Source of the DNA: Candidatus Omnitrophota bacterium
Lineage (GTDB): Bacteria; Omnitrophota; Gorgyraeia; Pluralincolimonadales; Pluralincolimonadaceae
DNA length: 64,000 nt
Direction: 5' to 3'
Assembly: GCA_041651455.1 (NCBI GenBank)
Contig: JBAZJG010000005.1
Location: 3,882 to 67,881, forward strand
Part shown: positions 1 to 39,795 of the stretch, piece by piece
Numbering within the stretch: position 1 is the stretch's first letter
Layout: every line of letters starts with the position of its first letter
The notes under the pieces: model-generated
The model's database searches: none
What the model was told of the DNA's origin: nothing
What the model saw: only the letters and a program-made list of their open reading frames with translations
Translations under genes and position numbers: made by a program

Positions 1-1184
1 TCAGGCCGAACACGCAGAGCGTTTTTGTCAGGGTGTTTGTCAAGGAGCCGGCTCCATCAAGCCGTATAGCATGGCGCGGGACAGGAACAGTGTATCCGCT
101 GGCGTTCCCGCCGCCCACAACGCCGCTTTACTCGGGCAGCAGCAGGCGGATCTATTACTACGATAAGGACGGGAATGACATCAGAAATGCGGATTTGAAC
201 GGAGTCATGGAACCGGAAGTCTATCCTGTGTATGATATAAACGGTAACCCGACATACATATATAACCCTTCGCGCCCGGCCAGCTGGACCCTTGAAAGCA
301 TACCGGCACCCGGAACCTACATCTACTGGCAACCGGAAGCGCCGTTCTGCGGGTGCTGGCTGTTCGCAAAAGGTGTCCAGGATGATACTTGGCCTACGGG
401 GGTCGGAGGGGAGACCTTCACGGCGAGGGGTTTCAAGTCGCTCGTAACGGACAGCCACGGCACGGGTGTTGTAAATACCGAGCCGAAGCCCCTCTATTGC
501 TTCGGTGATGTCAGCGAGATAAGGATGTATTCAAAAATGTATTACTCGCAATTCAATTATTCTGCGGATAAAACATTGGGTATGATTGGTTCAGATAACG
601 GGGCATCAACGTCTTATAGGGCCTGGATTAACGGAAGCATGGGGAGGCTTTCAACTTGGACCCCGACATATCCGGCCGCGAACACGACGATATTCAAATA
701 TGTCGCGAACAATCAGTATCTCGGCTGGGATTGGTCGGATTTCGACAGGGGCCAGTGCACTATTGGCCCTAGCGACTGGGACAAGGCAGGCGCTGTCACG
801 AAGATGCAGACGCACTGGGACAATTTACGCGGGATCCCTGAGAGCGGTTATATAACGTCGACTCCTTTCTACGCGGGATCTTTCGTGAAATGGGGGACGG
901 TTACGTGGTCTCCCCAGACCCAGCCAATGGCAAATACGGCGGTCACCATGTACCTAAGGAAGACATCTACGGCGCTCCCGTCCGCGGATGTCTCGTGGAC
1001 CGCGCTCGCGAACGGCGCGGCGATATCGGGGACGGACCCATGGATTCAGTATAAAGCGGTTCTCTCCACTACAAATATAAGCAGGGACCAGTATGCGGCA
1101 AGTTCAAGGACCCCCGTCCTTGCGGACGTAACGATAACGTATTTGCCCGCGATAAAAATAGAATATTGGAGGGAAGGGCTATGA
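1..1184 (+). CDS. 3' part of a large exported protein of unknown function; the gene starts upstream of the window
   Basis: The frame of ORF 33..1184 stays open back to nt 3 with no in-frame stop, so the CDS is 5'-truncated by the window edge. Its C-terminus TPVLADVTITYLPAIKIEYWREGL is paralogous to the C-terminus of the 1038-aa GspK-like protein. Its stop overlaps the next start (ATGA at 1181-1184). Confidence 0.6.
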   Translation, partial: RPNTQSVFVRVFVKEPAPSSRIAWRGTGTVYPLAFPPPTTPLYSGSSRRIYYYDKDGNDIRNADLNGVMEPEVYPVYDINGNPTYIYNPSRPASWTLESIPAPGTYIYWQPEAPFCGCWLFAKGVQDDTWPTGVGGETFTARGFKSLVTDSHGTGVVNTEPKPLYCFGDVSEIRMYSKMYYSQFNYSADKTLGMIGSDNGASTSYRAWINGSMGRLSTWTPTYPAANTTIFKYVANNQYLGWDWSDFDRGQCTIGPSDWDKAGAVTKMQTHWDNLRGIPESGYITSTPFYAGSFVKWGTVTWSPQTQPMANTAVTMYLRKTSTALPSADVSWTALANGAAISGTDPWIQYKAVLSTTNISRDQYAASSRTPVLADVTITYLPAIKIEYWREGL

Positions 1185-2176
1185 CGACGAGGATATTTAT
1201 GGCCGTATTTATAGTTTTTTGCGTGGTGGCTTCGACACGTGCCGACACGGTAGTTCTGCAGAACGGAAGGACACTGGAAGGCAGGATACTTGAACAAACA
1301 GACGACTACATTGAGATAAAACTCGGGTCGGGCAAGATGAAGCTCGGTAAGAAAGACATAAAATCATTCGAGATTAAGGAGCCGGCCGAAGGTTATTCAA
1401 CAGTAGAACTTCCCGATATCGAAGTGATGCCCGAGGAAGCGGCGGTACGGAAGCCGGTTGCTGCGGATATCAAGTTGAAGGCGGAGTATACGAAGGGCAA
1501 GGTCTTCGTGAGCGGCACGAGCTCCTATCCGAACAACACGCCGCTGAGGGTCTATTTTATGCAGGGCGAGAGCGTCGTGATGGTCAAGGAATCCCGCGTC
1601 AAGAGAGGGGAGTTCTATATCGCGTTCGGGCCTTTCGAGAAGGAAATTATGGCGGGCAAGTATTCGGTGCGTGCAGAGGCGACCATAGACGGCTCTAAGG
1701 CCTATTCGGAGCCCTTTGCGCTGGTCATCGGAAGCGGAGAGCGCGTAAAGGTCGACGAGACAAGGGAGAAACAGTACCTGCAGGATAAAGCGCAGGAAGT
1801 GTCGGAACTTTATGCAGAGCTGAACAGGGCGTATGATAACGCAAAGGCCTCTTATGACGGGCGGAAATGGAAGGGGTGGTCGAAGGGATGGCTTGAAAAG
1901 GTAAATTCAGCGGCCGCGGAATTCAACGATGATTCCCGGAAGTACATAGCGTCCGTCCGTCCCGTTTCGCAGAGGAGGCTTCAGTTCTGTTTCCACCAAC
2001 TTCCTCTCCTGCTTCGTGCATATACGATAGAGTTCAATTCAAAGAGCGCAAAATCCCCCGGGCAGGTGCTTCCGGTGCAGGATGCGCAGGCGCTGAGGCA
2101 GTCCTTTGACAGGGCACTGTCCGAGACGGTACAGGACGTATCCGCCGTCGCCGTGGACTTGAACCATACGAGATAA
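1181..2176 (+). CDS. Exported protein of unknown function, paralogue A (signal peptide, beta-domain, Trp-rich helical tail)
   Basis: ATG 1181 is preceded by GGAGGG (1169-1174) and overlaps the upstream stop. The N-terminus MTTRIFMAVFIVFCVVASTRA-DT looks like a signal peptide. It shares the ..GEFYIAFGPFEKEIMAGKYSV.. domain and the ELYAEL..W..W..W tail with the next gene. Confidence 0.7.
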   Translation: MTTRIFMAVFIVFCVVASTRADTVVLQNGRTLEGRILEQTDDYIEIKLGSGKMKLGKKDIKSFEIKEPAEGYSTVELPDIEVMPEEAAVRKPVAADIKLKAEYTKGKVFVSGTSSYPNNTPLRVYFMQGESVVMVKESRVKRGEFYIAFGPFEKEIMAGKYSVRAEATIDGSKAYSEPFALVIGSGERVKVDETREKQYLQDKAQEVSELYAELNRAYDNAKASYDGRKWKGWSKGWLEKVNSAAAEFNDDSRKYIASVRPVSQRRLQFCFHQLPLLLRAYTIEFNSKSAKSPGQVLPVQDAQALRQSFDRALSETVQDVSAVAVDLNHTR

Positions 2177-2232
2177 TGTGATATATTTATATAGATAGAA
2201 ACGCATCTGACTGTCGGGTGGGGGAGTATTCT

Positions 2233-3432
2233 GTGGGCAAAACGACTTCGTATAAAGCCGTTAGGACTGTAGCATTTCTGACCGGCTTTTTTTGTTTTTT
2301 ATGCCTTGCCCGGGCGGAGGTATTGCCCTCGCCGAAGATCACGATACTGAAAGTCGAGTATAATGTATCAGAAGGGAAGCCTATTATAGAGGTTGAGGGC
2401 GAAACGGACCTTCCGGAAGGCGCAGTGCTTTCGGTCTCCATAAGGAATGGCCCGGAACTTACGGCTTACAAGGATATAAAAGCAGTGCCGGGCAGGTTCA
2501 GCGTAAAACTTGGCCCGCTGGACAAGGAACTTGACGGGGAATACAGCGTGCAGGTCATGCTGGGCCATGAACAGCCGCAGGAGATTATAGACCGCCTTAA
2601 AAGGGACTCTTCGGATCTGTCCCTCAAGAGCATACAGGCGGTATCGCTTTTCAAGGCGGTCGCCGTAAGCCGTGAAAAATCCCCTTACGGGATCGAGGTC
2701 TGGGCATACAACGAGCAGTACGGCAAGCAGGTAATAGTGCATGCGGACGGCAAGACAAGCCTGCCTGACGGCGCGGTCCTTAAGGTATACCTGAAGCGCA
2801 TAGATACTATTATTGTCTTCGGAGAATGCATGGTAGCCGAGGGCTCATTCAGTATTTCGTTCGGGCCTTTCGGAAAAGAGCTGGCGCCGGGGACGTATAC
2901 GATCGAAGCGGAGTTCTTCCCCGACCTGCAGAGGCCCGAGTTCAAGAAGGTTGCCAACAACGAGAAGATACCCGCAGCGAAAAGTTCCTGCGAGGCAGTG
3001 GTAGGAAAGGTCTCGGACGTCTCAAAGGCCGAGAATGCGGCGTGGCAGGAAATCAACTCGGCGGTGATGTCCATCGATGAATTATATTGGGAGTTGAAGG
3101 ATGTCTACGCTCTGTCACAAACGCATTTCGACCCTGCCGCCTGGGACGAATGGTCAGACAGGTGGCGTTTCCACCTTAAGAAGGTAAGCAATAGCCTGAA
3201 AGACGGCACGGGCAGGGACAAGTCCCTGTCGTTGTATCCGGAGGCCGAAAAGGGCCTGCCGCTGGCGGTAAAGTACCTTTCGGAGATATATGTTATAATG
3301 ACCGACACGCTGAAGAACCGCGCCCCGGCAAAAAAGGGGGAGCTCGAAAAGCGCTGTTATGCCCTGGAAAACGAACTGGTAAAGCTTATGAAAAAGATGA
3401 AAGCCGAACTGGCGAACTCGCCGAAGGTGTAA
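2233..3432 (+). CDS. Exported protein of unknown function, paralogue B (two copies of the beta-domain)
   Basis: GTG 2233 lies 6 nt after GGGGGAG (2220-2226); the ORF-track start at 2218 would leave no RBS. The signal peptide is ..FLTGFFCFLCLARA-EV. There are two internal copies of the LP(E/D)GAVL..G.F...(L/F)GP..KEL..G.Y domain. The helical tail is ELYWEL..AAWDEWSDRW. Confidence 0.65.
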   Translation: MGKTTSYKAVRTVAFLTGFFCFLCLARAEVLPSPKITILKVEYNVSEGKPIIEVEGETDLPEGAVLSVSIRNGPELTAYKDIKAVPGRFSVKLGPLDKELDGEYSVQVMLGHEQPQEIIDRLKRDSSDLSLKSIQAVSLFKAVAVSREKSPYGIEVWAYNEQYGKQVIVHADGKTSLPDGAVLKVYLKRIDTIIVFGECMVAEGSFSISFGPFGKELAPGTYTIEAEFFPDLQRPEFKKVANNEKIPAAKSSCEAVVGKVSDVSKAENAAWQEINSAVMSIDELYWELKDVYALSQTHFDPAAWDEWSDRWRFHLKKVSNSLKDGTGRDKSLSLYPEAEKGLPLAVKYLSEIYVIMTDTLKNRAPAKKGELEKRCYALENELVKLMKKMKAELANSPKV

Positions 3433-3436
3433 GAGG

Positions 3437-6400
3437 ATGATAAAGAAGGGTGTGGCTATAGTATTTGCGCTCGGTGTCCTGGCGATGCTCTCATTGATCG
3501 GCTCGACGATGGTCCTGTCGGTCATAATGGAGCGGAAGGGGACCGTCAATTCCACCGCAAAGATAAAGGCGAGATATCTCGCCGATGCGGGTGTCGCGCG
3601 GGCTATCGCAGAGCTCAAATACGGCAATCAGGGTGCGCGCAATGATTCGGTCGATACGCTGGCGGAGACGATATTCGCGAGCGGACTGTCCGACAATACG
3701 TTGCTGAACGGCCGCGGCAGCTACAGCGTCACGGTTATCGATTGCGCGAGCCGCATAAACCTCAATGGCGGTAACTGCGACGCGCGCCTGTCTCTGATGC
3801 TCCAGAACCTCAGTACGGTCACTGCGGCGGGGCTTACGGTCGCGGAATGCGATACGATTGCCTCGAGGCGCCCATATGTCTGCATAGAAGAGGTGAAATC
3901 AAGGGCTGGTATATCAAGCACCAAATTCGCAAAAATTGAGAATTTTATCACGGTATTCGGTTATATAGACCCGAAGACCGTGGATCCGCAGAACCTCGCT
4001 TCTCCTTACGTGCTTCAGCCCCGTTCACCCGTCAATGTCAATACCGCTTCGGAGGAGGTCCTCAGGGCGGTGCTTATGGGCATTGAGGCGATCCATTCCT
4101 GCCCCAAGTGCGGCGGCGACGGGTACTACTTTGATGTTCTCGGGAACCATCTCGATTGCCCTTATTGTGATGGGTCGGGTTCGTCGGGCTCAATAACGGG
4201 CAACCTTGTTATAAACTCGACAGAAGCGCAGAACCTCGCACAGTACATTGTGACGCACAGGCCGTACTTGAACTGGGAATCTTTTTATGCTTCTATAAAG
4301 TCGTTCTTCAACAACGGGACGACGTCATCCGACCAGGAAGTGGTCATGGCGAACGCGAACCCGAATACCGGCTTCTCTTGGGTGCGCAACGATGCCTGGG
4401 CATCAAGGCTCGGCTATGTCGGCAAATACGTCATAGATATAAACAAGAACGGGACGGTCGAGGCATCGGATAGGGGCCTTACCAAGAGCACTACGGAATT
4501 TAGTTTCAACTCCGGGGGTTTCTACGAGATAAGGTCTACGGGCGTTTACAGGACGGCAGGCGGAGTTCCGCTGGCCCAGCGCGGTGTCGTGACGATTGTT
4601 AAGCTCTTCGGTACGATCAGGGCGACATCTCAGTCCGATTTCGACGGGGCGGGTAATACGAAGACCAATATCTCGACGTATCCGGAACCGGCAGGCGTGG
4701 GGGTTTCCGCGGCGGCTTATGACGGGCAGATAATGCTCTCGAGGATAAACCGCGCGACTCCGAGCTCGGGCAAATACTTCAGGGCAAATTATAATACTAC
4801 GTTGAATGCCGATGCAGGAGGAGGTAACACTGCCCTGCAGAACCCCCCGAATCCAGGGTCCGGGGTTATAGGCACGAAGCCGAACATAGGCAGTATTGCC
4901 TCATACAGCTCTAGGGGTGAGCTGGTGCCGGACGGGATGCTTGTGGATTCTTACGATGTCGTATGTCCGGACTACCTGCCCTCAAATAATATAACCTATA
5001 ATGCGGGGACGATGGAAGTATGGTTCAAGACGATGTGGAACAGCAACGACACGTTGATGTATAACGATAATTGCAAAGACCGCAAGGTCTATCGCCTCAT
5101 GAGCAGGGACGAGATAACCGGTGCCGGTACGAAGACATGGCCTTTCTCGACTTATGTCTTTTATTCTCAGAATTTCGGAGGAGTACAGAAGGGGTGTTCG
5201 ATAGGCGCCCAGGGTTACGGATACTACCAGAGCGGCAATTGGTCTTATATACCGAACACGCCGGAAGGTTCCGGGGATTATAAGATAGAGTTTTGCAGGA
5301 ATTATGTAGGCACCGAGGCATTGGGGATCTGGAATTCCGGCAAGTGGCGCCATTATGTCATTACATGGAAAGAGCCGCCGAACGGAGGCGCGTGTGACCC
5401 GGCGAATACCGGTAATTGGCCCGGTGTTTATCCGAATGACCTGAAGGTATACATGGACGGTACCGAGAGGAGCGCGGACCAGTATTTCCACCACTTTGAA
5501 TACCTTGACAATACCTCGGCGCAATACCTGATGCTCGGCCATGAATGGTGGGCGGGTTCGGGGTCGGTATCGCATTACGAACGCAACCAGCTGAACGGCG
5601 TAATAGGTTCGGTAAGGATATGGGATACACAGTTGTCCACGGCGCAGATATTGGCCGAATACGGCGCGGGGCTTTTTCAGAAGACCGGGACATATGTCTC
5701 GCCTACACTGGCCGTACCGGCCTCCGACGGCCCGACGGTAGAGTGGGGCACGGCAAGCTGGACAGGCATAGTGCCCAGCAGTGATGAATCGATAACCATG
5801 GGCGTGGATACGAATATCTCAGGGACTTATCACGGCAACTGGACATCTACCGGGACCGGCGAGGCTATTGTCGACGGATCCGGCAACCGGCTCAGGAGCG
5901 GCTCAATACGATTCAGGAGTATTTTAAGTTCCACTAAAGGCACGGCAGCCCAGCCGGACGCGGATATAATGCAGAATTATACCGATCCGACCTTCGAGAC
6001 GCATCCTCCGGGAGCCGGCGGGAATGAAGCGCCGCTTCCTCCGGGGTGGGGCGCCTCCGGAAGCTGGGGCACTTTCCTTTCCACTAAGGGAAGGCCTGTC
6101 CACGGAGGCACGTGGTGCGCCGGAAATTTCGGCAGCGGCAGGACTTTCATAAATATACCGGTCACCGGAGGCAAGTCCTACAAGTTCGTGGGTTACTCAT
6201 ACCTGCCGAGCGACCCGGACACCATAAATTGCTATTATACGATGCGGTTCAACGGGACGGGCGGATATAATAGCGGGGAGGTCTCCATAATGGGGACGCG
6301 GGACGCATGGCTCTATACCCGTATACCCACCAACGGAGGCTGGGTCACAGCGCCGTTGGATGCCACGCAATGTACTATCTCGCTGTGCTCGTGGCATACG

Positions 6401-6553
6401 GGGTCCGGATGGATAGCCGCAAGCTTCGACGACCTTAAGCTTATAGAGCAGGGCGCTACGGTCCTGGTCCCGCTTACGGATACGCCCGTCATAGAGGATG
6501 TCAGCATAACCTACCTGCCCAGGACGCAGGTGTTATACAGCAGGGAATTTTAA
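3437..6553 (+). CDS. GspK/PilX-like minor pseudopilin fused to a DnaJ-type zinc-finger insert, a LamG-like domain and a CBM4/9-like jelly-roll domain
   Basis: The N-terminus KKGVAIVFALGVLAMLSLIGSTMVL and the ..PVNVNTASEEVLRAVL.. block are typical of T2SS protein K-type pseudopilins. The LamG-type edges are GTMEVWFKT ... VIGSVRIWDTQLSTAQILAEY. The C-terminal NYTDPTFE...GKSYKFVGYSY...ASFDDLKLIE resembles a CBM4/9 jelly-roll. Confidence 0.65.
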   Translation: MIKKGVAIVFALGVLAMLSLIGSTMVLSVIMERKGTVNSTAKIKARYLADAGVARAIAELKYGNQGARNDSVDTLAETIFASGLSDNTLLNGRGSYSVTVIDCASRINLNGGNCDARLSLMLQNLSTVTAAGLTVAECDTIASRRPYVCIEEVKSRAGISSTKFAKIENFITVFGYIDPKTVDPQNLASPYVLQPRSPVNVNTASEEVLRAVLMGIEAIHSCPKCGGDGYYFDVLGNHLDCPYCDGSGSSGSITGNLVINSTEAQNLAQYIVTHRPYLNWESFYASIKSFFNNGTTSSDQEVVMANANPNTGFSWVRNDAWASRLGYVGKYVIDINKNGTVEASDRGLTKSTTEFSFNSGGFYEIRSTGVYRTAGGVPLAQRGVVTIVKLFGTIRATSQSDFDGAGNTKTNISTYPEPAGVGVSAAAYDGQIMLSRINRATPSSGKYFRANYNTTLNADAGGGNTALQNPPNPGSGVIGTKPNIGSIASYSSRGELVPDGMLVDSYDVVCPDYLPSNNITYNAGTMEVWFKTMWNSNDTLMYNDNCKDRKVYRLMSRDEITGAGTKTWPFSTYVFYSQNFGGVQKGCSIGAQGYGYYQSGNWSYIPNTPEGSGDYKIEFCRNYVGTEALGIWNSGKWRHYVITWKEPPNGGACDPANTGNWPGVYPNDLKVYMDGTERSADQYFHHFEYLDNTSAQYLMLGHEWWAGSGSVSHYERNQLNGVIGSVRIWDTQLSTAQILAEYGAGLFQKTGTYVSPTLAVPASDGPTVEWGTASWTGIVPSSDESITMGVDTNISGTYHGNWTSTGTGEAIVDGSGNRLRSGSIRFRSILSSTKGTAAQPDADIMQNYTDPTFETHPPGAGGNEAPLPPGWGASGSWGTFLSTKGRPVHGGTWCAGNFGSGRTFINIPVTGGKSYKFVGYSYLPSDPDTINCYYTMRFNGTGGYNSGEVSIMGTRDAWLYTRIPTNGGWVTAPLDATQCTISLCSWHTGSGWIAASFDDLKLIEQGATVLVPLTDTPVIEDVSITYLPRTQVLYSREF

Positions 6554-6564
6554 GTATGTCTTTA

Positions 6565-6610
6565 AAGGCCGGCAGGGTACTTGTTATCCTGGCCGGCCTT
6601 TTTTTGTTTT
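6565..6610 (+). terminator. Rho-independent terminator after the pseudopilin cluster
   Basis: A GC-rich stem AAGGCCGGCAGG / CCTGGCCGGCCTT with one bulge is followed by TTTTTTTGTTTT, 12 nt after the stop at 6553. Confidence 0.7.
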
Positions 6611-6751
6611 CAGCCGTTCCGGAGCGGATGAGATTGTCCCCAGGAAAGATGTCGAATCAATAAAGAAGGAAGCGCTGCCTGAGGGTTATCCCGGGATCCC
6701 GGATAAGGAAGATGAGAAATCTCCCGCCGCGAATTTTAGGGCCATTTTTGC

Positions 6752-6780
6752 TTGACAACATTTTTCGGCGGAGTTATATT
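6752..6780 (+). promoter_or_regulatory. Sigma70-type promoter for the EF-G gene
   Basis: TTGACA (6752-6757), a 17-nt spacer, then TATATT (6775-6780), about 55 nt upstream of ATG 6837. Confidence 0.6.
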
Positions 6781-6836
6781 AACTGATACTTATCTGAAGA
6801 TGGACCTCACCAATAATATATTAAAGGAAGGCTTCC

Positions 6837-8885
6837 ATGGAAAGATACCCCGTTGAGAACATCCGCAACATAATCTTCGTGTCGCACTCCGGTTCGGGCA
6901 AGACCTCGTTGGTCGAGGCGTTGCTCTACGATGCCAAGATGACCACCCGTCTCGGGAAGATCTCGGAAGGCAACACGCATTCCGACTATAACTCCGACGA
7001 AATAGAGCGCAAGATATCCATTAGCTCGAAATTCCTGCACCTCATATGGAAGAATACGAGGGTCCACATACTCGATACGCCCGGTTACGCGGATTTCGTC
7101 GGCGACGTCATATCGCCGATGCGCGCAGCCGACGCGGCCGTGCTGCTGGTAGAGGCGGTCCACGGGATAGAGGTCGGCACCGAGCGCGTATGGGAATTCC
7201 TCGAGCAGAGGGGCCTTCCGCGAATAATATTCATAAACAAGCTGGACAAGGAGAACGCGAATTTCGAGAATACGCTGAACATGATACGCGAGAGGTTCGG
7301 CAGGCAGTGCGTGGCGCTGAACTCGCCTGTCGGCGAGCAGCAGTCGCTGAAATCGGTCGAGAGCGTGCTCGCGAAGGGCGGGAAACTGAAAGAGGACCTG
7401 CTCGATGCAGTCGTGGAGACCGACGATACGCTTACCGAGAAATACCTCGAAGGCAAGGAGCTTTCCGCGGACGAGATAACGAAAGCCCTTAAGTCCGCGT
7501 GCGTATCGGGCAAGATAATACCGGTATTCTGCGGTTCCGCCGTCCAGAACATCGGCGTCCAGGAACTGCTCGACGGCATCACGGGCCTTTTGCCTTCGCC
7601 GGCGGACCGTCCCGCGGTCGAGGGGATAAACCCAAAGACGAAGGAGGCCGTTACGAGAAAACCGTCGGAATCCGAACCGTTCTCGGCTTTCATATTCAAG
7701 GACATATTCGACCCGTATGTAGGGCACCTAACGCTCTTCAGGGTCTACTCCGGCTCGGTGGAGTCGAACACGGGTTTCTATAACTCGTCGAGGGACCTGA
7801 AAGAGAGGATAGGCCAGATATACATCCTGCAGGGCAAGGAACAGGTCCCGGTGCAGAAGGCCGGCGCGGGCGATATCGCGGCGGTCGCGAAGCTCAAGGA
7901 TACGCACAATAACGATACCGTATGCGATGAGAAGAACCCGGTTGTCTTCGAGCCGACCGCCTATCCCGAGCCGTGCATATCGAGCTCGGTAAAGCCGAAG
8001 ACGCGCCAGGACGAAGAGAAGATCATGGGCACGCTCACGCGCCTGGCTTCCGAGGACCCGACGTTCAGGATAAGCCGCGACGAGCAGACGCACGAACTGG
8101 TGATATCCGGCATGGGGGACCTGCATCTCGATGTGATGCTCGACAGGATGAAGAAGCGTTTCGGCGTCGACGTAGAAGTCGGCGTCCCGAAGGTCCCGTA
8201 CAAAGAGACGATAAAGAAGGCCGTAAAGATACAGGGAAAGTTCAAGAGGCAGTCCGGCGGCCGCGGACAGTACGGCGACTGCTGGCTTGAGCTCGAACCC
8301 CTGCCCCACGGGCAGCAGTTCGAGTTCGTGGACAAGGTCGTAGGCGGCGCGATACCGAGGCAGTTCATACCTTCCGTCGAGAAGGGCGTAAAGGAAGCGA
8401 TGACGAAGGGCTTCCTCGCGGGTTATCCTGTCGTCGACGTCAGGGTCACGGTGTTCGACGGCTCGTTCCACGAGGTCGACTCGTCTGATATGGCTTTCCA
8501 GATAGCCGGCTCCATGGCGTTCAAGAACGGCCAGGAGCAGGCGAGCCCGGTCCTGCTCGAGCCGATAATGAGCGTGGAGATAATCGTGCCGAACGATTAC
8601 CTCGGGCAGATAACGGGCGATATCAACTCCCGCCGCGGCAGGATCATGGGCATCGAGGGGAGGGGCAAGCAGGAGTACGTGAAGGCGTCCATACCCCTGT
8701 CCGAGATGTTCAAATACGCCACGGAACTGCGCTCGATGACGGGCGGCCGCGGCTCATATTCGATGAAATTCGACCATTACGAGGAAGTCCCGGCCAAGAT
8801 CACCCAGATCATAGTCGCCAACATGAAGAAGGCGGCTGAGGAAGCTGCCGGGGGCCACGCGGGGCACGGCCACGAGCATAAGTAA
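6837..8885 (+). CDS. fusA: Elongation factor G (EF-G2-like paralogue)
   Basis: The 682-aa product has GTPase motifs SHSGSGKTS, DTPGYADF and NKLD and a full-length EF-G domain order. An AAGGAAGG RBS precedes the ATG. The gene stands alone, not in an rpsL-rpsG-fusA-tuf context. Confidence 0.9.
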   Translation: MERYPVENIRNIIFVSHSGSGKTSLVEALLYDAKMTTRLGKISEGNTHSDYNSDEIERKISISSKFLHLIWKNTRVHILDTPGYADFVGDVISPMRAADAAVLLVEAVHGIEVGTERVWEFLEQRGLPRIIFINKLDKENANFENTLNMIRERFGRQCVALNSPVGEQQSLKSVESVLAKGGKLKEDLLDAVVETDDTLTEKYLEGKELSADEITKALKSACVSGKIIPVFCGSAVQNIGVQELLDGITGLLPSPADRPAVEGINPKTKEAVTRKPSESEPFSAFIFKDIFDPYVGHLTLFRVYSGSVESNTGFYNSSRDLKERIGQIYILQGKEQVPVQKAGAGDIAAVAKLKDTHNNDTVCDEKNPVVFEPTAYPEPCISSSVKPKTRQDEEKIMGTLTRLASEDPTFRISRDEQTHELVISGMGDLHLDVMLDRMKKRFGVDVEVGVPKVPYKETIKKAVKIQGKFKRQSGGRGQYGDCWLELEPLPHGQQFEFVDKVVGGAIPRQFIPSVEKGVKEAMTKGFLAGYPVVDVRVTVFDGSFHEVDSSDMAFQIAGSMAFKNGQEQASPVLLEPIMSVEIIVPNDYLGQITGDINSRRGRIMGIEGRGKQEYVKASIPLSEMFKYATELRSMTGGRGSYSMKFDHYEEVPAKITQIIVANMKKAAEEAAGGHAGHGHEHK

Positions 8886-15504: not shown

Positions 15505-17738
15505 AAAAGGGTCTTATCTGGAAATTAGCGCTTGTCCTTTTGCTCGCGGGCGTCTCAGCATGGCTCATAAACCCTGTGCTCGACATCAAGGATAAGGACG
15601 GCAAGGTGGTCAGGGAAGGGAAGATAAACCTCGGCCTCGACCTGCAGGGCGGCATGCATCTCGTGCTGAAGGTCGATACCTCTAAGATACCCGAAGAAGC
15701 GAGGAAGGACGCGGCCGACCGCGCGCTTGAGGTCATCCGCAACAGGATAGACGAGTTCGGCGTGAAGGAACCGCAGATATCCCCGCAGGGCAAGGACGAG
15801 ATAGTCGTCCAGCTGCCGGGCATAACCGACAGGGACAGGGCGCTCCAGCTCATAGGCAAGACGGCGCTCCTCGAGTTCAAGCTTGTTTCCGATGACGCCG
15901 AGGCGATCAAGAAAGCCCTCGGAGGGGAGACGCCGGCCGGTTATGAGCTCAAGGAAGATGAGAACGGCGATAAGATCCTGCTTGAAAAAGAGGCCGTCCT
16001 GACCGGTTCCGCGATCATCACGGCATATATGAGTTTTGACAATTCGCGTTTCAATGAACCGTACGTGGCGCTGGAGTTGAATTCGGAAGGCGCAAAGAAG
16101 TTCGCCGAGATAACGAAGAAATTCTGCAGGAGGGGCGGGATACCGGGCAGGCAGCTTGCCATCGTGCTTGACGGGAAAGTCAAGTCGGCGCCCGAACTGA
16201 AAGATCCCATTACCGACGGCAAGGCCGTGATAACGGGCAGGTTCTCGAAAGAGGACGCCAACGACCTCGCTATAGTGCTTAAGGTCGGCGCGCTTCCGGC
16301 CCCCGTATACATCGAGGAGGAGAGGACCGTCGGCCCGCTGCTCGGGCAGGACTCTATAAATGACGGCATCAGGGCCACGCTTCTCGGCGCGGCTTTCGTC
16401 GGGATTTTCATATTGGTCTATTACCTGTTCGCGGGTTTTGTGGCGGACATCGCGATGGCGCTGAACATACTTTTGCTGTTGGGTGCCATGGCATATTTCA
16501 AGGTAACGATGACGCTGCCCGGCATCGCGGGTATCGTGCTTACCCTCGGCATGGCGGTCGACGCGAACGTGCTTATACAGGAGAGGATGCGCGAAGAGAT
16601 CGAGGCGGGCAAGACGCTCGCTCAGGCCATAAGGCTCGGTTACGACAGGGCCATGAGCGCGATCATCGATTCCAACCTGACGACGGTAGTAGCCGCCATA
16701 TTCCTGTTCCAGTTCGGCACGGGCCCTATACGCGGGTTCGCGCTGACGCTCATAATCGGTCTTCTGATAAGCATGTTCACGTCCGTTTTTGTGACAAGGG
16801 TCATATTCGAGACGCTGTTAGGGCTTAAACTGCTGAAGGGCCTGCCGATGCTCAAGATCATCGGGACCCCGAAGTTCGACTATATAAAGATCCGCTGGAT
16901 ATGCTACGCGCTTTCTATCACGGTGCTCGCGGTAGGCATGGGCACTTATTTCATGAAAGGCCCGGATGTATACGGCGTGGACTTCAGGGGCGGCCAGGTC
17001 CAGGAATTCAAGTTCCGCGATACGGTGGATGCGAAGGACGTGCGCGCGGCGCTCGCGGAGATAAACCTCGGCAACGCCTCCGTCCAGCAGCTAAGGGACG
17101 ACCCCAAGGTCTTCATAATCCGCACCCAGGAAGAGGTCACCGACGAGATATCGAAGAAATTCGCATCGACCTTCAAGGAGAACAAGGCCGAGATAATAAA
17201 GATAGACAAGGTCGGGCCTTCGGTAGGCGGCCAGCTGAGGATGAAAGCTTTATACGCGATCGTCTTTTCGATGCTCGGCATCATGGTATATGTCGCGTTC
17301 AGGTTCAAGCACTGGTATTTCGCGCTTGCGGGCGTCATCGCGCTGTTCCATGACGTATTCGTCGCGATGGGATTCATGGCGCTTTCCGGGCGCGAGATGA
17401 CGCTTCTGATCGTCTCGGCACTGCTGACTATCGCCGGTTTTTCGATAAACGACACTATAGTTATCTATGACAGGATAAGGGAGAACGCGAAGCTGAACCA
17501 TAAGATGTCCCTGAGAGACCTTATAAACCTCAGCGTGAACCAGACGATGTCGAGAACTCTGCTGACATCCTTCACGGTGCTCGTGGTCGTGGCCGTGCTT
17601 TATATGTACGGCGGCGAAGTCCTCAACGATTTCGCGTTCTGTCTTCTCGTAGGGTTCATATCGGGCATCTATTCGACGGTCTTCATCGCGAGCCCGCTGA
17701 TATTGCTGTTCCACGGGAATAAAAAAAGGAACCTATGA
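15501..17738 (+). CDS. secDF: Protein translocase subunit SecDF (fused SecD-SecF)
   Basis: A single 745-aa ORF with no internal stop. The SecD periplasmic head (LGLDLQGGMHLVL) plus 6 TM segments is followed by the SecF part (GVDFRGG ... FSINDTIVIYDRIRE). Confidence 0.9.
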   Translation: MKKGLIWKLALVLLLAGVSAWLINPVLDIKDKDGKVVREGKINLGLDLQGGMHLVLKVDTSKIPEEARKDAADRALEVIRNRIDEFGVKEPQISPQGKDEIVVQLPGITDRDRALQLIGKTALLEFKLVSDDAEAIKKALGGETPAGYELKEDENGDKILLEKEAVLTGSAIITAYMSFDNSRFNEPYVALELNSEGAKKFAEITKKFCRRGGIPGRQLAIVLDGKVKSAPELKDPITDGKAVITGRFSKEDANDLAIVLKVGALPAPVYIEEERTVGPLLGQDSINDGIRATLLGAAFVGIFILVYYLFAGFVADIAMALNILLLLGAMAYFKVTMTLPGIAGIVLTLGMAVDANVLIQERMREEIEAGKTLAQAIRLGYDRAMSAIIDSNLTTVVAAIFLFQFGTGPIRGFALTLIIGLLISMFTSVFVTRVIFETLLGLKLLKGLPMLKIIGTPKFDYIKIRWICYALSITVLAVGMGTYFMKGPDVYGVDFRGGQVQEFKFRDTVDAKDVRAALAEINLGNASVQQLRDDPKVFIIRTQEEVTDEISKKFASTFKENKAEIIKIDKVGPSVGGQLRMKALYAIVFSMLGIMVYVAFRFKHWYFALAGVIALFHDVFVAMGFMALSGREMTLLIVSALLTIAGFSINDTIVIYDRIRENAKLNHKMSLRDLINLSVNQTMSRTLLTSFTVLVVVAVLYMYGGEVLNDFAFCLLVGFISGIYSTVFIASPLILLFHGNKKRNL

Positions 17739-18601
17739 GCAATAACAAGTTTGCCCAGATACGCAAACTGCTCCTGGTCATCCTCGCGCTGAACTGGGGC
17801 GTGGCCATCGCGAAGATCGTATACGGCCACCTGACGAACTCCGTTTCGATGTTCGCGGACGGCATCCATTCGCTCTCGGACGGCTCGTCGAACATAATAG
17901 GGCTGATAGGCATAGGTGTGGCCGCGCGCCCGAGGGACGTCGGGCATCCTTACGGCCACAGGAAGTACGAGACGCTCGCGTCGATGGCGATAGCCGTTGC
18001 GCTCTTTATGATAGCGTTCAGGCTGCTGAGCGATTCGGTCCATAAGTTGTGGCACCAGGAGCTGATAAATCCCGAGGCGAACCTGTTGAGCTTCATCGTT
18101 ATGGGCGTCACGATCGCGGTCAACGTCAGCGTGATGAAGTATGAGCGCAGGAAGGGCAAGGAGCTTAACAGCGATTTCCTCATCGCGGATTCGCTGCATA
18201 CGGGCTCCGACATTCTCGCCTCCGTCATGGTCGTCGTCAGCTTAATAAGCGTAAGGCTCGGCCTGCCCATAATCGACGTCATCGCGGGCATGGTCATATC
18301 GCTTCTGGTCGGCTATGTCGGCGTAAGCATACTCAGGGACAGTTCGAGGGTCCTGACCGATTATGCGGTCATAAATTCCCAGCAGATTACGGAGACCCTG
18401 TCAGACATGAAAGAGGTCATCGGCTGCCACCGCATACGCACGCGCGGCCGCACCGACGATGTCCATGTCGACCTGCACATCACTGTGGACAGGAACATGA
18501 GCGTGGGAAAGGCCCATGACCTCTCCACGGCGATAGAGAAGCGCATACGCGAGAAGTTTTCCGGCGTTACCGACGTGATGGTACACGTCGAGCCCGCGTA
18601 G
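17735..18601 (+). CDS. Cation diffusion facilitator family transporter
   Basis: ATGA overlap with secDF. There are six TM segments with the HSLSDG and HTGSD metal-site motifs, and a C-terminal cytoplasmic domain ..HRIRTRGRTDDVHVDLHI.. Confidence 0.85.
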   Translation: MSNNKFAQIRKLLLVILALNWGVAIAKIVYGHLTNSVSMFADGIHSLSDGSSNIIGLIGIGVAARPRDVGHPYGHRKYETLASMAIAVALFMIAFRLLSDSVHKLWHQELINPEANLLSFIVMGVTIAVNVSVMKYERRKGKELNSDFLIADSLHTGSDILASVMVVVSLISVRLGLPIIDVIAGMVISLLVGYVGVSILRDSSRVLTDYAVINSQQITETLSDMKEVIGCHRIRTRGRTDDVHVDLHITVDRNMSVGKAHDLSTAIEKRIREKFSGVTDVMVHVEPA

Positions 18602-35985: not shown

Positions 35986-38900
35986 ATGCTAAGCCAAAAT
36001 TGTAAGAAATATATTATATCATTATCCATCGCGCTCGCGATGTCGTTTCCGTCGATGTCGTGCCCCGGGGAATTAGATTACAATAAGCTTTCGCTTGAAG
36101 CCGCGCTGAACAGGATGTATGAAGTAGACCCCGAAATACAGATAAGCAGACTCGCATGCGATGCGTCCCTCCTCGAGATAAAAGCAAGGAAACTCGATAC
36201 ATTCATGCCGAAGCTCAGCGTCGGCGTCAGTATAGTCAAGCCGGTCGATATCTTCACGAAACTTGACCAGCAAAAAGAGATGTTCTTTGAACAGCAGGTT
36301 ATCATAGAATTCGCCGTGACCTCAAACAGCTTCAACCATATCCTTAAGGACAGGAAAGGGTACGAAGCTAGCATGCTCGAATTGAAGCAGGCGGTTTCCG
36401 AAAGGAGCCGTGAGCTCATCACCGTATATTACGCCGTCGCAAGGGCCCAGGAGAATTACAGGTCCAGCTGCGATAACATCGAGACAGTCGAGAAGGTCCT
36501 GAAGATGGTCGAAAACAGCAATGAATATACGGACGTCGAAAAACTCGAGATAAGGAACTATCTTGCCGTGGTCACGGAAGAGAAGTTAGGCGCGCTGAAT
36601 ACGCTCATCAATACGAGAAGAGACCTCCGCGGGCTTCTCGGTCTGGAGAACAGGGAAGATATCGATATAACCGTCGAGGAACTGCCTGATAATATCAACA
36701 ATGACATCGCCTTCTATGAAAACCCGTTGATAAGGCCGGCGGATTACACCCTCGACATATATAAGAAAAGGGGTGAGGCTGCGGACGTGGCCTCCCGGAT
36801 CAGCGCGTCTCCCTTATTGAAATTTTCTTCCGCGACGATCCTCGGCATCGCCGAGGGCAGGTTCACGAAACTCCAGAAGAAAGTGATAACTGATACGGGA
36901 GTGGAGTTGCATATAACCGACTTTGGCTATACCGGAGGCCTCAATGATGTAAGCAAGATTAATTCGCAGATAGCGAGGTTGGAGGTATTGAAAGCAGAAG
37001 AGGACCTTGAGTATTCGGATTTAATAGCGAACGGCAAACTGGCCGAACTAAGCGGCCTAATAGATAATTACAGGGAATACATAACGAAGACGGAAGACAT
37101 GTTGAGGATGTTCAGGGAACGCCTCTCCTTGCCGGTCATCGAGATAATAAGGATGAACGATAATCTCTATAAGGCCAAGTATGCGATGCAACAGGCGCTC
37201 GTCGATTATACGGTCATGCTCTCGAACCTTAAAGGTGTCGAGCTGAAACCCGAACAGACCAGCCCTCAATACCAGGATATGAGCTTGGAAGACCTGCTTG
37301 CGAGGGGCGAGAGGAGTGACATCCTGACCGTCAAACAGATATCCGAGAAGAAGATGAGGATGGAAAACGTCAGGATCAACGCGACAAAGGCCGGATATTT
37401 CCCGAAGATCACCGGTGCGGCCATACTTGAGAACGCGAACATAGACGGCGTGCCGTCGCAGGCTACGAGGGCTTACGTTGCGCTTGAAGGGCAGCTCTTT
37501 AACTTCAAGAACGGGCAGGCCATCAGGGCAGCGAAGGCCAGCATGGAAGAAATCAGGTACGAGGGCGCCGCGCTGCAGAACGTGGTCGCGGATGAGATAA
37601 TAAAGAACTACCTGTTCATATTAAGGAGCAAGAATACCTTAAAATGGCTGAACGAGATCAAGGGGATAAAAGACGACATAATACGCGATATGCTGGAAAA
37701 TATGGAAGGCAAGGGCCCCAAATATAGTAATTCGGATATACTGCCGCTGGTCCTGCAGCAGATGGAGCTGGACAGGATGATGGCGGATGCCGAGTTCTCG
37801 CTGGCGGTCGTCGAGTATAGCCTCAAGAAATGGACCGGCATACCGCTCAACGAGACGATAAGCGTAAAGGAGCTCCCGGCGTTCGGGGAGGACGAAGGGC
37901 TCTCAGGGTTCATGGCGCTGATCCGGTCCAAGGTGGCGCCGTATTTCGACGGTAAGGCGCCGGTAAAACAAGCCCTGAGCGCCGTCGAAAAGAACAGGGC
38001 GGAAGAGGCGCGGGCCGTCGCGTATGATGGGGCGCTGCTCCAGGTAAAATGCGAGACGAAGGGCATGGAATATAAGGGATGGCATGATCCCGACAGGCAG
38101 GTGTCTTTCAGCGTCTCCGTGCCGTGGGGCGACCGCAGGGAAAAGATAGCCAGGTCTGAGGCGGCGAGGACCCGCATCAAGTCGGAGATCGAGTATTTGA
38201 AGAGCATGGATGCTTATGAAAAAGAGAGGTTATCCGTCAAGACCTCCTACGATTCATCGAAAGCGCTCCTTGAAGACCTGCGCAGCAAGAAGGAGAATAT
38301 GGAATCGCAGTACAGGATAACCGAGGAACTTTACCGGTTCGGCGGCCGGACAAAGAAGCAGATGGTTGATTCCAAGCTGGATTTCATAGTAGCGCAGATG
38401 AGCTATGAGGAAGCCGTCCTTGACAACTATTACCACAATGCGAGGGAGCTGCTGGTAGTGGAGAAAGATGCGGAACCCGAAGGCAGCGAAAGGATATTGC
38501 TGGCCGGATTGCAGGAAGCGATAGACCTTGCCATGCAGAACAGCCGCGAAATAAGGAAATACGAGGAGAGCCTCAAGCTCGAGAAGGAAACATTGGATTA
38601 TTACAAGACGGTGAGGATAAAGGGCGATATCGGAGGGGATTCCTATATAATAGATAACAAGGGCTGGAATGAGACAAAGAGGGTCAAGACCGCGGGGATC
38701 GTCGCGACCGCCGACATTGACCTCGTGAACAAATATATGGTGAAAGTCCAGCAGCGCAGGATCGAGCTTGCCGAAAAGGACCTCGAGCAGGCGAAGTTCG
38801 ACCTGACCCTGAAGGTCGCGGATGCCTACTCGGGCTACCTCGGTTCGCTCGCGGAGACCTCGGAAGTCCGCAAGGAATACGAGAGGCAGAAGACGGTCCT

Positions 38901-39795
38901 GGCGGAAATGGAAGAGCTTTTCAAGGCGAAAGCGATAGCGCATGTGGACCTGCTGAAGCAGAGGGAGTTCGTAGAGAGCCTTCTGCAGAAGTACATCGAC
39001 ACCAACAGGTATACCGAAGGGCACAGGAACAGCCTCGGCATTGCCGTCGGAGGCCTCGACCCGAGGTTTTCGGTCGTGAACACCGAGGTTTACGACAAGT
39101 CCGCCCGGCGCGTCGCGCTTACGGAAGATTTCGAGATCAAGCAGAGGCTGTTGGACGAGCTTACATCCGCGAGGCAGGCGCTCCAGGGACTGCTGCAGGA
39201 TGATCTGCTCAAGCGCGCGGAGATCAAACTCGACATGGCCAGGCTTGATACCCAAGCTATATCAAAACAGGTAAAGACGCTCGCGGTCAACCTCGAGTAC
39301 ATATACCTTACGGATTTCATGGGACTAATAATGAGGGATGAAGCCGCCTTCTCGCGTTATGACAACATGTCGGAGTTTTTCTCGCTGAACTCCATAGACC
39401 AGATATTCAATCCCGCCACCGGGACTAAGGCGAGGATTGCGGCGATAAGCGAGAAGGTCGCGGCATTAAGGTCGAAGTCATATACGAAAAACGTTGTCCA
39501 GGACGCGTTGAGGAGGTTTACCGATTACCAGGTGGCCGTGGCCGATTACGCCAACTACGAGAAGAACGAAACGGTGCTGGAAAACGAGATGGCCGAGAAG
39601 ATGCGTATGGAAGAGGCGGCAGGGAACACGGCCCTGATCAGGCAGAGGGAGCTAAAAGAGACGATACTTAACAACAAGATAAAGAAGATACAGGCATTCT
39701 ACAGGATGATGAAATTTATGAACGAACTGGACCGTTATCTGATAAGATATACTTCAAAAGGCATAGAATCATACGTAACATTCGTCACAAAATGA
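35986..39795 (+). CDS. Giant TolC-family outer-membrane factor with about six OEP-type repeats (three TolC-protomer equivalents in one polypeptide)
   Basis: The 1269-aa product has an N-terminal signal-like segment (..LSIALAMSFPSMSC). TolC-style module starts occur at aa ~35 (LSLEAALNRMYEVDPEIQ), aa 432 (MSLEDLLARGERSDILTVKQ) and aa 838 (LLAGLQEAIDLAMQNSREIR). Each is followed by long heptad-rich helical hairpins and short Gly/aromatic beta segments. Confidence 0.65.
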   Translation: MLSQNCKKYIISLSIALAMSFPSMSCPGELDYNKLSLEAALNRMYEVDPEIQISRLACDASLLEIKARKLDTFMPKLSVGVSIVKPVDIFTKLDQQKEMFFEQQVIIEFAVTSNSFNHILKDRKGYEASMLELKQAVSERSRELITVYYAVARAQENYRSSCDNIETVEKVLKMVENSNEYTDVEKLEIRNYLAVVTEEKLGALNTLINTRRDLRGLLGLENREDIDITVEELPDNINNDIAFYENPLIRPADYTLDIYKKRGEAADVASRISASPLLKFSSATILGIAEGRFTKLQKKVITDTGVELHITDFGYTGGLNDVSKINSQIARLEVLKAEEDLEYSDLIANGKLAELSGLIDNYREYITKTEDMLRMFRERLSLPVIEIIRMNDNLYKAKYAMQQALVDYTVMLSNLKGVELKPEQTSPQYQDMSLEDLLARGERSDILTVKQISEKKMRMENVRINATKAGYFPKITGAAILENANIDGVPSQATRAYVALEGQLFNFKNGQAIRAAKASMEEIRYEGAALQNVVADEIIKNYLFILRSKNTLKWLNEIKGIKDDIIRDMLENMEGKGPKYSNSDILPLVLQQMELDRMMADAEFSLAVVEYSLKKWTGIPLNETISVKELPAFGEDEGLSGFMALIRSKVAPYFDGKAPVKQALSAVEKNRAEEARAVAYDGALLQVKCETKGMEYKGWHDPDRQVSFSVSVPWGDRREKIARSEAARTRIKSEIEYLKSMDAYEKERLSVKTSYDSSKALLEDLRSKKENMESQYRITEELYRFGGRTKKQMVDSKLDFIVAQMSYEEAVLDNYYHNARELLVVEKDAEPEGSERILLAGLQEAIDLAMQNSREIRKYEESLKLEKETLDYYKTVRIKGDIGGDSYIIDNKGWNETKRVKTAGIVATADIDLVNKYMVKVQQRRIELAEKDLEQAKFDLTLKVADAYSGYLGSLAETSEVRKEYERQKTVLAEMEELFKAKAIAHVDLLKQREFVESLLQKYIDTNRYTEGHRNSLGIAVGGLDPRFSVVNTEVYDKSARRVALTEDFEIKQRLLDELTSARQALQGLLQDDLLKRAEIKLDMARLDTQAISKQVKTLAVNLEYIYLTDFMGLIMRDEAAFSRYDNMSEFFSLNSIDQIFNPATGTKARIAAISEKVAALRSKSYTKNVVQDALRRFTDYQVAVADYANYEKNETVLENEMAEKMRMEEAAGNTALIRQRELKETILNNKIKKIQAFYRMMKFMNELDRYLIRYTSKGIESYVTFVTK

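Follow-up and report, generated by a model that had tools for sequence, protein, structure and literature searches.

The apical subunits of the PilK/GspK type are recognizable by the lack of a glutamate at position +5 (PMC13533445), and in GspK, CpaL and ComZ it is the C-terminal strand that licenses the tip complex (PMC13533445). In filaments without PilC/PilY1, PilK-type subunits carry a large insertion between the pilin sheet and the returning C-terminal strand (PMC13533445), and the joining of lectin modules to pilins is both known and widespread (PMC8179133). What the GspK alpha-domain does has been described as unclear (PMC8179133, PMC13533445), and a lineage-specific Ca2+ site is among those of GspK/XcpX (PMC6211770). 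Here we describe K2, a protein of 1038 amino acids encoded in a 64,000-nucleotide stretch (the window) of the Candidatus Omnitrophota contig JBAZJG010000005.1 (assembly GCA_041651455.1), whose GspK-like cap domain carries two CxxCxGxG knuckles in a 42-residue insert. We consider K2 to be, with reasonable probability, the modular adhesin at the tip of a type IV filament, its cap domain bearing a structural Zn(Cys)4 hairpin.

Compared with GspK/XcpX (3CI0_K, 5VTM_X, 6UTU), K2 is about 3.5 times larger and only 16-20% identical, has lectin-type modules, about 600 residues in all, ahead of its final strand and a Cys4 knuckle in its second helix-hairpin-helix (HhH) hairpin, and no type II secretion system (T2SS) machinery is seen near it. 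Thermus ComZ, Caulobacter CpaL (TadG) and the Vibrio cholerae competence pilin PilX are PilK-family proteins with adhesin insertions in cis, an architecture that K2, by analogy, appears to share exactly (PMC13533445). The inserted module of ComZ is a beta-solenoid, unlike the modules of K2, and these three proteins are without the combination of GspK-type alpha-domain and knuckle. The modular pilins of Streptococcus sanguinis include PilB with a vWA module and PilC with a ConA-like lectin module; PilC, which is small and has its module attached terminally, is not a GspK-type cap and lacks an alpha-domain, a returning C-terminal strand and a Cys4 element. Verru_Chthon cassette protein A (TIGR02600) is very large, with a GspK-like N-terminus, and is encoded with the prepilin-type proteins B-D in PVC-group bacteria. 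Three homologues of K2 gave weak N-terminal matches to TIGR02600 (P0027, E 5.8e-7; P0031 and P0132, about 3e-4) at 19-28 bits against a cut-off of 332 bits, and K2 itself gave no TIGR02600 match. The features of K2 are as follows.

3437..6553, + strand: K2, 1038 amino acids, putative GspK/PilK-family modular tip pilin, the protein described here
3437..3622, + strand: prepilin-type leader and hydrophobic alpha-1 helix, residues 1-62 (PilX_N match; model helix 2-62)
3749..4456, + strand: alpha-domain, residues ~105-340, predicted to be inserted in the pilin beta-sheet; two ComEA-like HhH units
4028..4084, + strand: first helix of the second HhH unit, or T2SSK motif (PVNVNTASEEVLRAVLMGI, residues 198-216), where the T2SSK match ends
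4085..4210, + strand: 42-residue insert, residues 217-258, a predicted two-strand stem carrying the Cys4 knuckle hairpin
4094..4189, + strand: core of the insert, two CxxCxGxG knuckles, HSCPKCGGDG and CPYCDGSGSSG, joined by the hairpin YYFDVLGNHLD
4934..5716, + strand: predicted ConA-like/LamG-like lectin jelly-roll, residues ~500-760 (by fold)
5729..5956, + strand: small family-conserved beta-sandwich, residues ~765-840 ('...V.WGT..WT...'; model strands 768-838)
6104..6466, + strand: predicted CBM-type beta-sandwich, residues ~890-1010, between the conserved sandwich and the C-terminal strand
6482..6550, + strand: conserved C-terminal beta-strands (LTDTPVIEDVSITYLPRTQVLYSREF; model strands 1018-1027 and 1031-1037, predicted local distance difference test (pLDDT) 91-96)

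The leader, MIKKG followed by VAIVFALGVLAML (MIKKG/VAIVF), has phenylalanine and no glutamate at +5, and residues 4-54 match Pfam PilX_N (E 2.6e-4, 21.3 bits against a cut-off of 25.5). The N-terminus matches GspK as well as PilX profiles, in keeping with the GspK-like host protein of the original prediction. In its predicted layout, which is GspK-like, K2 begins with an N-terminal helix of 60 residues; two strands come next, and the helical domain (residues ~105-340) is followed by four further strands. In the model, the helices of this alpha-domain (115-325) lie between strands 94-102 and 346-350, giving a predicted pilin fold with an alpha-domain inserted in the beta-sheet, as in the GspK subtype. 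With the alpha-domain folded alone, Foldseek returned XcpX (6utu_I, probability 1.0) and GspK (3ci0_K) first, followed by ComEA-type HhH domains. A family sequence profile searched against the PDB sequences matched the ComEA HhH domain 8dfk (E 6.7e-9) and found only ComEA/Tex HhH domains and not GspK, so that GspK membership is shown by the fold. The NCBIfam equivalog NF037980 scored K2 at 36.9 bits against a cut-off of 130, and Pfam T2SSK scored the intact protein at 16.2-21.5 bits against 24.2; to judge from these profiles, K2 is a member of the superfamily and not a T2SS GspK equivalog. The possibility that a cytoplasmic zinc-finger protein had been misread as a pilin was rejected on the strength of the leader, the fold and the operon.

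The pseudopilin-K hallmark PVNVNTASEEVLRAVL (residues 198-213) is followed by HSCPKCGGDGYYFDVLGNHLDCPYCDGSGSSG (residues 220-251, nucleotides 4094-4189), after which the normal continuation resumes with NLAQYIVTHRPYLNWESF. This is the arrangement that had originally been noticed in the sequence, with a CxxCxGxG pair standing between the hallmark and its continuation. The four cysteines are at positions 222, 225, 241 and 244, and both units match CxxCxGxG exactly. A chance origin of the pair was rejected: from the composition of K2 (1.6% Cys) the expected number of pairs within 40 residues is 5e-7, none of 200,000 composition-preserving shuffles contained a pair (604 contained even a single motif), and elsewhere in the 64-kb window, translated in six frames, CxxCxGxG occurs just three times, each time singly.

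In intact K2 the T2SSK match covers model positions 1-18 only and stops exactly at the first helix of the second HhH unit (21.5 bits). Removal of the insert in silico raised the T2SSK score from 21.5 to 27.8 bits (cut-off 24.2) and extended the match to positions 1-28, while the HHH_3 score rose from 18.6 to 23.5 bits, which identifies the element as an insertion into the hairpin of the second HhH unit. It stands in place of the short 'sDGtNt' loop ('GIsDGtNtIS') of distant knuckle-less relatives. The AlphaFold2 model predicts stem strands at 217-219 and 257-258 and a beta-hairpin (230-231/239-240) between the knuckles, with block pLDDT values of 89, 75 and 65, and the alpha-domain folded alone adopts the same insert topology at lower confidence. 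On the zinc ribbon, for which modelling had been proposed as a check, the models speak at the level of strand topology, a stem plus a hairpin; a Foldseek search with the alpha-domain-alone model returned no zinc-ribbon or DnaJ match.

Sequence comparison points to the zinc centre of DnaJ. When a profile of 18 aligned inserts was searched against all PDB sequences, the best match was the Cys-rich domain of E. coli DnaJ (1EXK, E 7e-7), in an alignment that covers motifs 2 and 3 and the hairpin of one zinc centre; anti-TRAP was second (E 2e-3). The Pfam profile PF00684 matches all 18 inserts at E <= 1 (best 7.5e-6) and none of them reaches its 32.7-bit threshold, which is to be expected of an insert that corresponds to half a DnaJ Cys-rich domain. 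As in DnaJ, the CxxCxGxG knuckles flank a beta-hairpin and their cysteines are invariant, and the order CxxCxGxG, beta-hairpin, CxxCxGxG is common to the DnaJ Cys-rich domain (PF00684; 1EXK), CYO1 and anti-TRAP. CYO1 has a DnaJ-type finger with two CxxCxGxG units, binds Zn2+ and shows protein disulfide isomerase (PDI)-like activity in thylakoids (PMC3800646). DnaJ has two zinc centres and is a cytoplasmic chaperone, whereas K2 has a single centre, in a loop embedded in an exported pilin. The insert therefore resembles, as the sequence matches suggest, one DnaJ zinc centre in how it would work, with zinc as the predicted ligand, rather than a member of the four-repeat family; the DnaJ-type pair first proposed is supported by the 1EXK match to the extent of one zinc centre only. 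Common ancestry with the DnaJ Cys-rich domain is not demonstrable for so short a motif. In the literature, a search for zinc, zinc ribbons or CxxCxGxG motifs in connection with minor pilins, GspK or the periplasm found nothing relevant.

The knuckle is conserved across a clade. A scan of species-representative genomes yielded orthologues 91, 89, 74, 55 and 53% identical to K2, in metagenome-assembled genomes (MAGs) labelled Candidatus Omnitrophota, except for two with the label 'uncultured Planctomycetia'. All four cysteines are invariant in these orthologues (loci L002-L006) and in the paralogue K3 of five genomes, so the cysteine pairs did not prove to be a peculiarity of one protein, and the lineage specificity that was to be settled by aligning orthologues takes the form of a conserved, clade-specific knuckle. 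An exhaustive HMMER search collected 675 family members at E <= 1e-3, and about 14 full-length proteins among the best 150 of the 675 carry the same CxxC...CxxC insert, 22 residues after NxNTA. One knuckle-bearing relative comes from Candidatus Auribacterota (MBN1522370.1, PGAP name 'zinc finger-like domain-containing protein'). The idea that the insert is unique to K2, which arose from a word-indexed protein search returning five distant knuckle-less homologues, was overturned by the HMMER search and the genome scan. The hosts belong to Omnitrophota and Auribacterota lineages that are uncultured and largely anaerobic and are known from digester or groundwater MAGs.

Across the 18 aligned inserts the sole invariant columns are C, P, C, G, D, G in the first knuckle and C, C, G in the second, and the hairpin between them ranges from 9 to 22 residues, is variable and is often aromatic-rich. 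Such a combination, invariant cysteines with Gly/Pro around a loop of variable length, is what one would expect if metal ligands flank a variable hairpin. In a neighbour-joining tree (insert masked, unbootstrapped) proteins with the knuckle group together in a single clade, within which a knuckle-less group is nested, a topology that would imply either one gain and one loss or two gains. Two further relatives have CxxCxGxG-type knuckles elsewhere in the alpha-domain, P0132 at residues ~238-270, before the 'RPY' turn, and P0027 at residues ~250-285, one helix later. Their positions suggest that these were acquired independently, and knuckles at two other positions of the domain suggest repeated selection for such a brace.

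The part of K2 that follows the pilin sheet is dominated by modules with lectin-type folds. The LamG-like domain of the original prediction is recovered as a predicted ConA-like jelly-roll fold; Pfam Laminin_G_3 stays below threshold in K2 (18.2-21.8 bits against 27.6) and reaches 38.5 bits in the homologue P0014. The small sandwich after it is seen in the family consensus, has an equivalent segment in the neighbouring GspK-like protein K1 and directly precedes the C-terminal strand in most relatives. A low-confidence linker (residues 855-886) leads into the CBM-type sandwich, for which Foldseek matched the CBM16 structure 2zew (TMt 0.55, 126 columns, E 1.2e-3); Foldseek gives no query range, and the match was placed on residues ~890-1010 (pLDDT 56-91) from the domain layout of the model. 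The CBM4/9-like jelly-roll proposed for this region is partly supported, as a putative CBM-type beta-sandwich; Pfam CBM_4_9 (PF02018) has no match in K2 (residues 842-1038 searched). The same profile matches one orthologue weakly (L006, E 0.0072) and the paralogue K3 (P0009) just above its cut-off (26.2 against 25.9 bits). The terminal strands lie inside the motif TPVIEDVSITYLPRTQVLYSREF, which is common to K1, K3 and the whole family, and they are predicted to return to the pilin sheet and complete it, as a 'C-beta' in cis.

An ENA metagenome contig (L001), which continues upstream beyond the window, encodes a protein identical to K2, with the gene order H (165 residues)-I (123)-J (238)-K1 (962)-accessory (336)-accessory (404)-K2. 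H, I and J are N_methyl pilins that head the operon, and their leaders, G followed by (F/L)TLIE, have glutamate at +5, unlike that of K2; a J homologue matches T2SSJ in the related locus L008. GspH/I/J-type minor pilins are thus co-encoded with K2. The fuller order is H-I-J-K1-accessory-accessory-K2-accessory-K3, and the operon is conserved in five related genomes. The features that surround K2 in the window are listed here.

33..1184, + strand: K1, C-terminal 383 residues; the N-terminus lies off the window (full gene L001 2290..5178)
1166..2176, + strand: accessory secreted protein, 336 residues, with a signal-peptide-like N-terminus, a beta-sandwich repeat and a helical C-terminal part
2218..3432, + strand: second accessory protein of the same family, a 404-residue reading frame called as 369 residues in ENA
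6556..6745 (~190 nucleotides), + strand: scar of a deleted third cassette (358-residue accessory gene plus K3), from blastn against L008

K1 is a 962-residue GspK-like modular pilin with a PA14 module and without the Cys knuckle (Pfam PA14 29 bits, cut-off 24; T2SSK_1st 0.0012). In K1 the first HhH unit is followed by the PA14 module, and there is no second NVNTA unit. The C-terminal motif PVLADVTITYLPAIKIEYWRE is common to K1 and K2, K1 ending in the same strand motif. The locus thus encodes several alternative, putative lectin-bearing tips. In locus L003 the place that K1 has in L001, directly after the GspJ-like gene, is taken by a 369-residue repeat protein with a PEP-CTERM-like tail (1668-2777), and in a sister genome the roughly 1.2 kb ahead of the first pilin gene (L002 1-1200) hold no convincing open reading frame.

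The 336-residue accessory protein, which has weak family matches only, is a blastp homologue of its 404-residue neighbour, of the 358-residue protein before K3 in the sister genomes and of a 320-residue protein beside P0017; the 404-residue protein in turn matches the 336-residue protein at E 1.5e-15 and the 358-residue protein of L008 at 7e-28. The family (320-400 residues, secreted; window 1166-2176 and 2218-3432, L008 8923-9999, L009 12520-13482) has no informative Pfam match and combines a repeated 'G.F...FGPF.K.L..G.Y' sandwich with a helical tail. Its genes always adjoin GspK-like genes, even in the distant P0017 locus, and its members are candidate chaperones or tip partners. P0017 is a distant knuckle-bearing relative encoded beside its accessory homologue outside any pilin operon. 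In its locus (L009/L010 10001-22523), P0017 stands after a response regulator and before a CBM30/PEP-CTERM protein, a LacI-type regulator, GH94, GH9 and GH39; with CBM30/CBM11 genes also nearby, the neighbourhood is a polysaccharide (cellulose/glycan) utilization setting.

Between K2 and EF-G, all five related genomes have a third cassette of about 4 kb, made up of the 358-residue accessory homologue and K3, a protein of about 1020 residues that is 37% identical to K2, keeps the knuckle and has a CBM_4_9 domain. In the window genome this cassette has been deleted. By blastn, window 6300-6605 corresponds to L008 8667-8972 and window 6724-7000 to L008 13048-13324, and what is left between still reads as the beginning of the accessory gene, a frame-shifted piece from within that gene and the final K3 codons ('REF*').

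Taken together, the fold, the modules and the operon are best explained by a pilus-tip adhesin or glycan-binding tip subunit, the function originally suggested. K2 would cap a type IV filament, its prepilin-like N-terminal helix anchoring it on top of the filament on the GspI/GspJ-like pair encoded upstream. The roughly 600 residues of lectin-type modules, ConA/LamG-like and then CBM-like, would be looped out between the pilin sheet and the C-terminal beta-strand, which would fold back, complete the sheet and so license tip assembly, leaving the modules free to bind glycan on a surface, a polymer or a partner cell. The filament may be type IVa pilus-like: a tip this large speaks for an extended pilus rather than for a periplasmic secretion pseudopilus. 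At the base of the short aromatic-rich beta-hairpin, the two CxxCxGxG turns would clamp one metal ion, most likely Zn2+, and the knuckle would serve as a metal brace, stiffening a hairpin of variable sequence that protrudes from the exposed cap and that may itself be a surface for contacts. The job of the Cys4 knuckle is thus most likely structural, and by analogy the stiffening by zinc in K2 may be the counterpart of the Ca2+ sites in classical GspK/XcpX. More speculatively, a zinc brace that needs neither disulfide chemistry nor the machinery for it would suit anaerobes. Overall, the observation first made on this sequence and the interpretation given to it appear essentially right.

Several points weigh against this reading. 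The globular part of a pilin reaches its fold outside the cytoplasm, a setting in which Cys4 zinc sites are uncommon and CxxC pairs can become oxidised. AlphaFold2 does not model zinc, whose binding is thus a prediction, and the second knuckle is modelled with no more than moderate confidence, at a pLDDT of 65 in the full model and of 47-57 in the alpha-domain folded alone. K2 contains only two of the four DnaJ repeats that make up two zinc centres, and PF00684 scores it at 13.9 bits as a whole protein and at 19 bits as the isolated insert against the threshold of 32.7. The nested knuckle-less subclade (P0019, P0021, P0023 and P0024) indicates that the insert is dispensable for basic tip function. 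As regards the type of filament, no secretin, ATPase or platform genes are found within the 64-kb window.

The location of the domain outside the cytoplasm is also the starting point for a redox role in place of a fixed metal, which we judge to be rather unlikely. The four cysteines might pair as two structural disulfides; alternatively, the knuckle might be a thiol switch that releases zinc, or a PDI-like centre, of the kind known from DnaJ-type fingers, and under oxidising conditions the cap might change conformation or act on a partner. CYO1 with its PDI-like activity likewise has only two units, and the CxxC pair of one knuckle would be near enough to oxidise; in switches of the Hsp33/RsrA type, close CxxC pairs do so. 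Nevertheless, the conserved Gly/Pro residues of CPxCGGDG and CxxCxGxG are those of zinc-knuckle turns and not of CxxC helices like that of thioredoxin, the envelope may plausibly be reducing in largely anaerobic host lineages, and nothing redox-related is encoded beside the operon.

The variability of the hairpin could also be taken to mean that it is primarily a binding surface, docking the accessory protein family or a ligand, and this, too, we hold to be improbable as the main role. The analogy is with DnaJ zinc centre II and anti-TRAP, both of which use the element for protein contacts; the DnaJ Cys-rich domain and anti-TRAP, the closest sequence analogues of the insert, are protein-interaction elements. 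An aromatic-rich stretch (YYFDV, YLYSY, KISYQVW and others) between invariant knuckles would be in keeping with docking, as would the homologous accessory gene that stands beside K genes even at the distant P0017 locus. Accessory genes also accompany the knuckle-less K1, however, and the hairpin sequence is too poorly conserved to define a motif.

The ComEA-like character of the HhH units raises the question of DNA. In ComZ of Thermus, a pilin of the PilK type, an inserted module is believed to bind DNA (PMC8179133), and K2 might be a comparable DNA receptor of a competence pilus, its HhH units binding DNA and the knuckle adding a nucleic-acid-binding finger. Besides the family profile match to 8dfk, the homologue P0001 bears the JGI name 'ComE-like DNA-binding protein' and P0027 scores 44 bits against a ComEA HhH repeat model. 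We nonetheless regard this as very unlikely: the best fold matches are the alpha-domains of GspK and XcpX, for which no DNA binding is known, the knuckle interrupts precisely the hairpin through which HhH proteins contact phosphate, and the appended modules have lectin/CBM folds, one relative being encoded in a cellulose-utilization locus. That the Cys4 site binds iron, as a rubredoxin-like redox-active tip centre for extracellular electron exchange, can be given hardly any weight, for although CPxCG knuckles are common to rubredoxins and zinc ribbons, weak Pfam matches to rubredoxin-like ribbons occur (RUBY_RBDX 0.024, zf-ChsH2) and some Omnitrophota are predicted to have conductive pilins (PMC10066038), the profile matches best the zinc sites of DnaJ and anti-TRAP and not rubredoxin, a lone centre at the tip would be without a wire to connect to, and there are no cytochrome genes in the locus.

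The remainder of the window is of a housekeeping nature, with EF-G, YebC, RuvCAB, SpoIID, QueA/Tgt, SecDF, RecJ, RecG, fatty-acid synthesis, DnaG and RpoD. A cation (zinc) efflux transporter of the CDF family is encoded at 17735-18601, 11 kb downstream of K2; no link to the Cys4 site is implied. Further downstream is an overlapping gene pair (35986-39795 and 39792-49019), the first gene encoding a 1269-residue protein with TolC-like OEP repeats and the second a 3075-residue protein in which a 1,3-beta-glucan synthase domain of the FKS type (PF02364, E 2.4e-24), typically eukaryotic, is combined with GH76 and GT2 regions.

Returning to the tip adhesin with its metal-braced cap, K2 is a known kind of modular tip pilin with a new variation and not a new system. 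The variation is a clade-wide conserved Cys4 knuckle that decorates the HhH hairpin of the GspK alpha-domain, and together with the knuckles that two relatives have elsewhere in the domain it points to a face of the cap where selection repeatedly adds a rigid protrusion. DnaJ-type zinc knuckles on proteins that are exported and displayed at the surface are uncommon, and this would be one; it suggests that zinc braces may do for anaerobes what disulfides or calcium do for aerobes. It is tempting to go further and suppose that a functional metal-Cys4 centre on the filament cap, acting as a switch that senses redox state or metal or else as a docking hairpin like that of DnaJ, controls which of the interchangeable lectin-bearing tip pilins (K1, K2 and K3, all having accessory proteins of their own) is loaded or active. 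We think this doubtful; if true, the ultra-small Omnitrophota cells would gain a switchable repertoire of tips for host or substrate recognition. Current views are not overturned by these findings, which extend the catalogue of modular pilins. The H-I-J-K1-accessory-accessory-K2-accessory-K3 locus fits the recent model in which the C-terminal strand licenses the tip, and offers candidate adhesins for the host-attached lifestyle that has been proposed for Omnitrophota.

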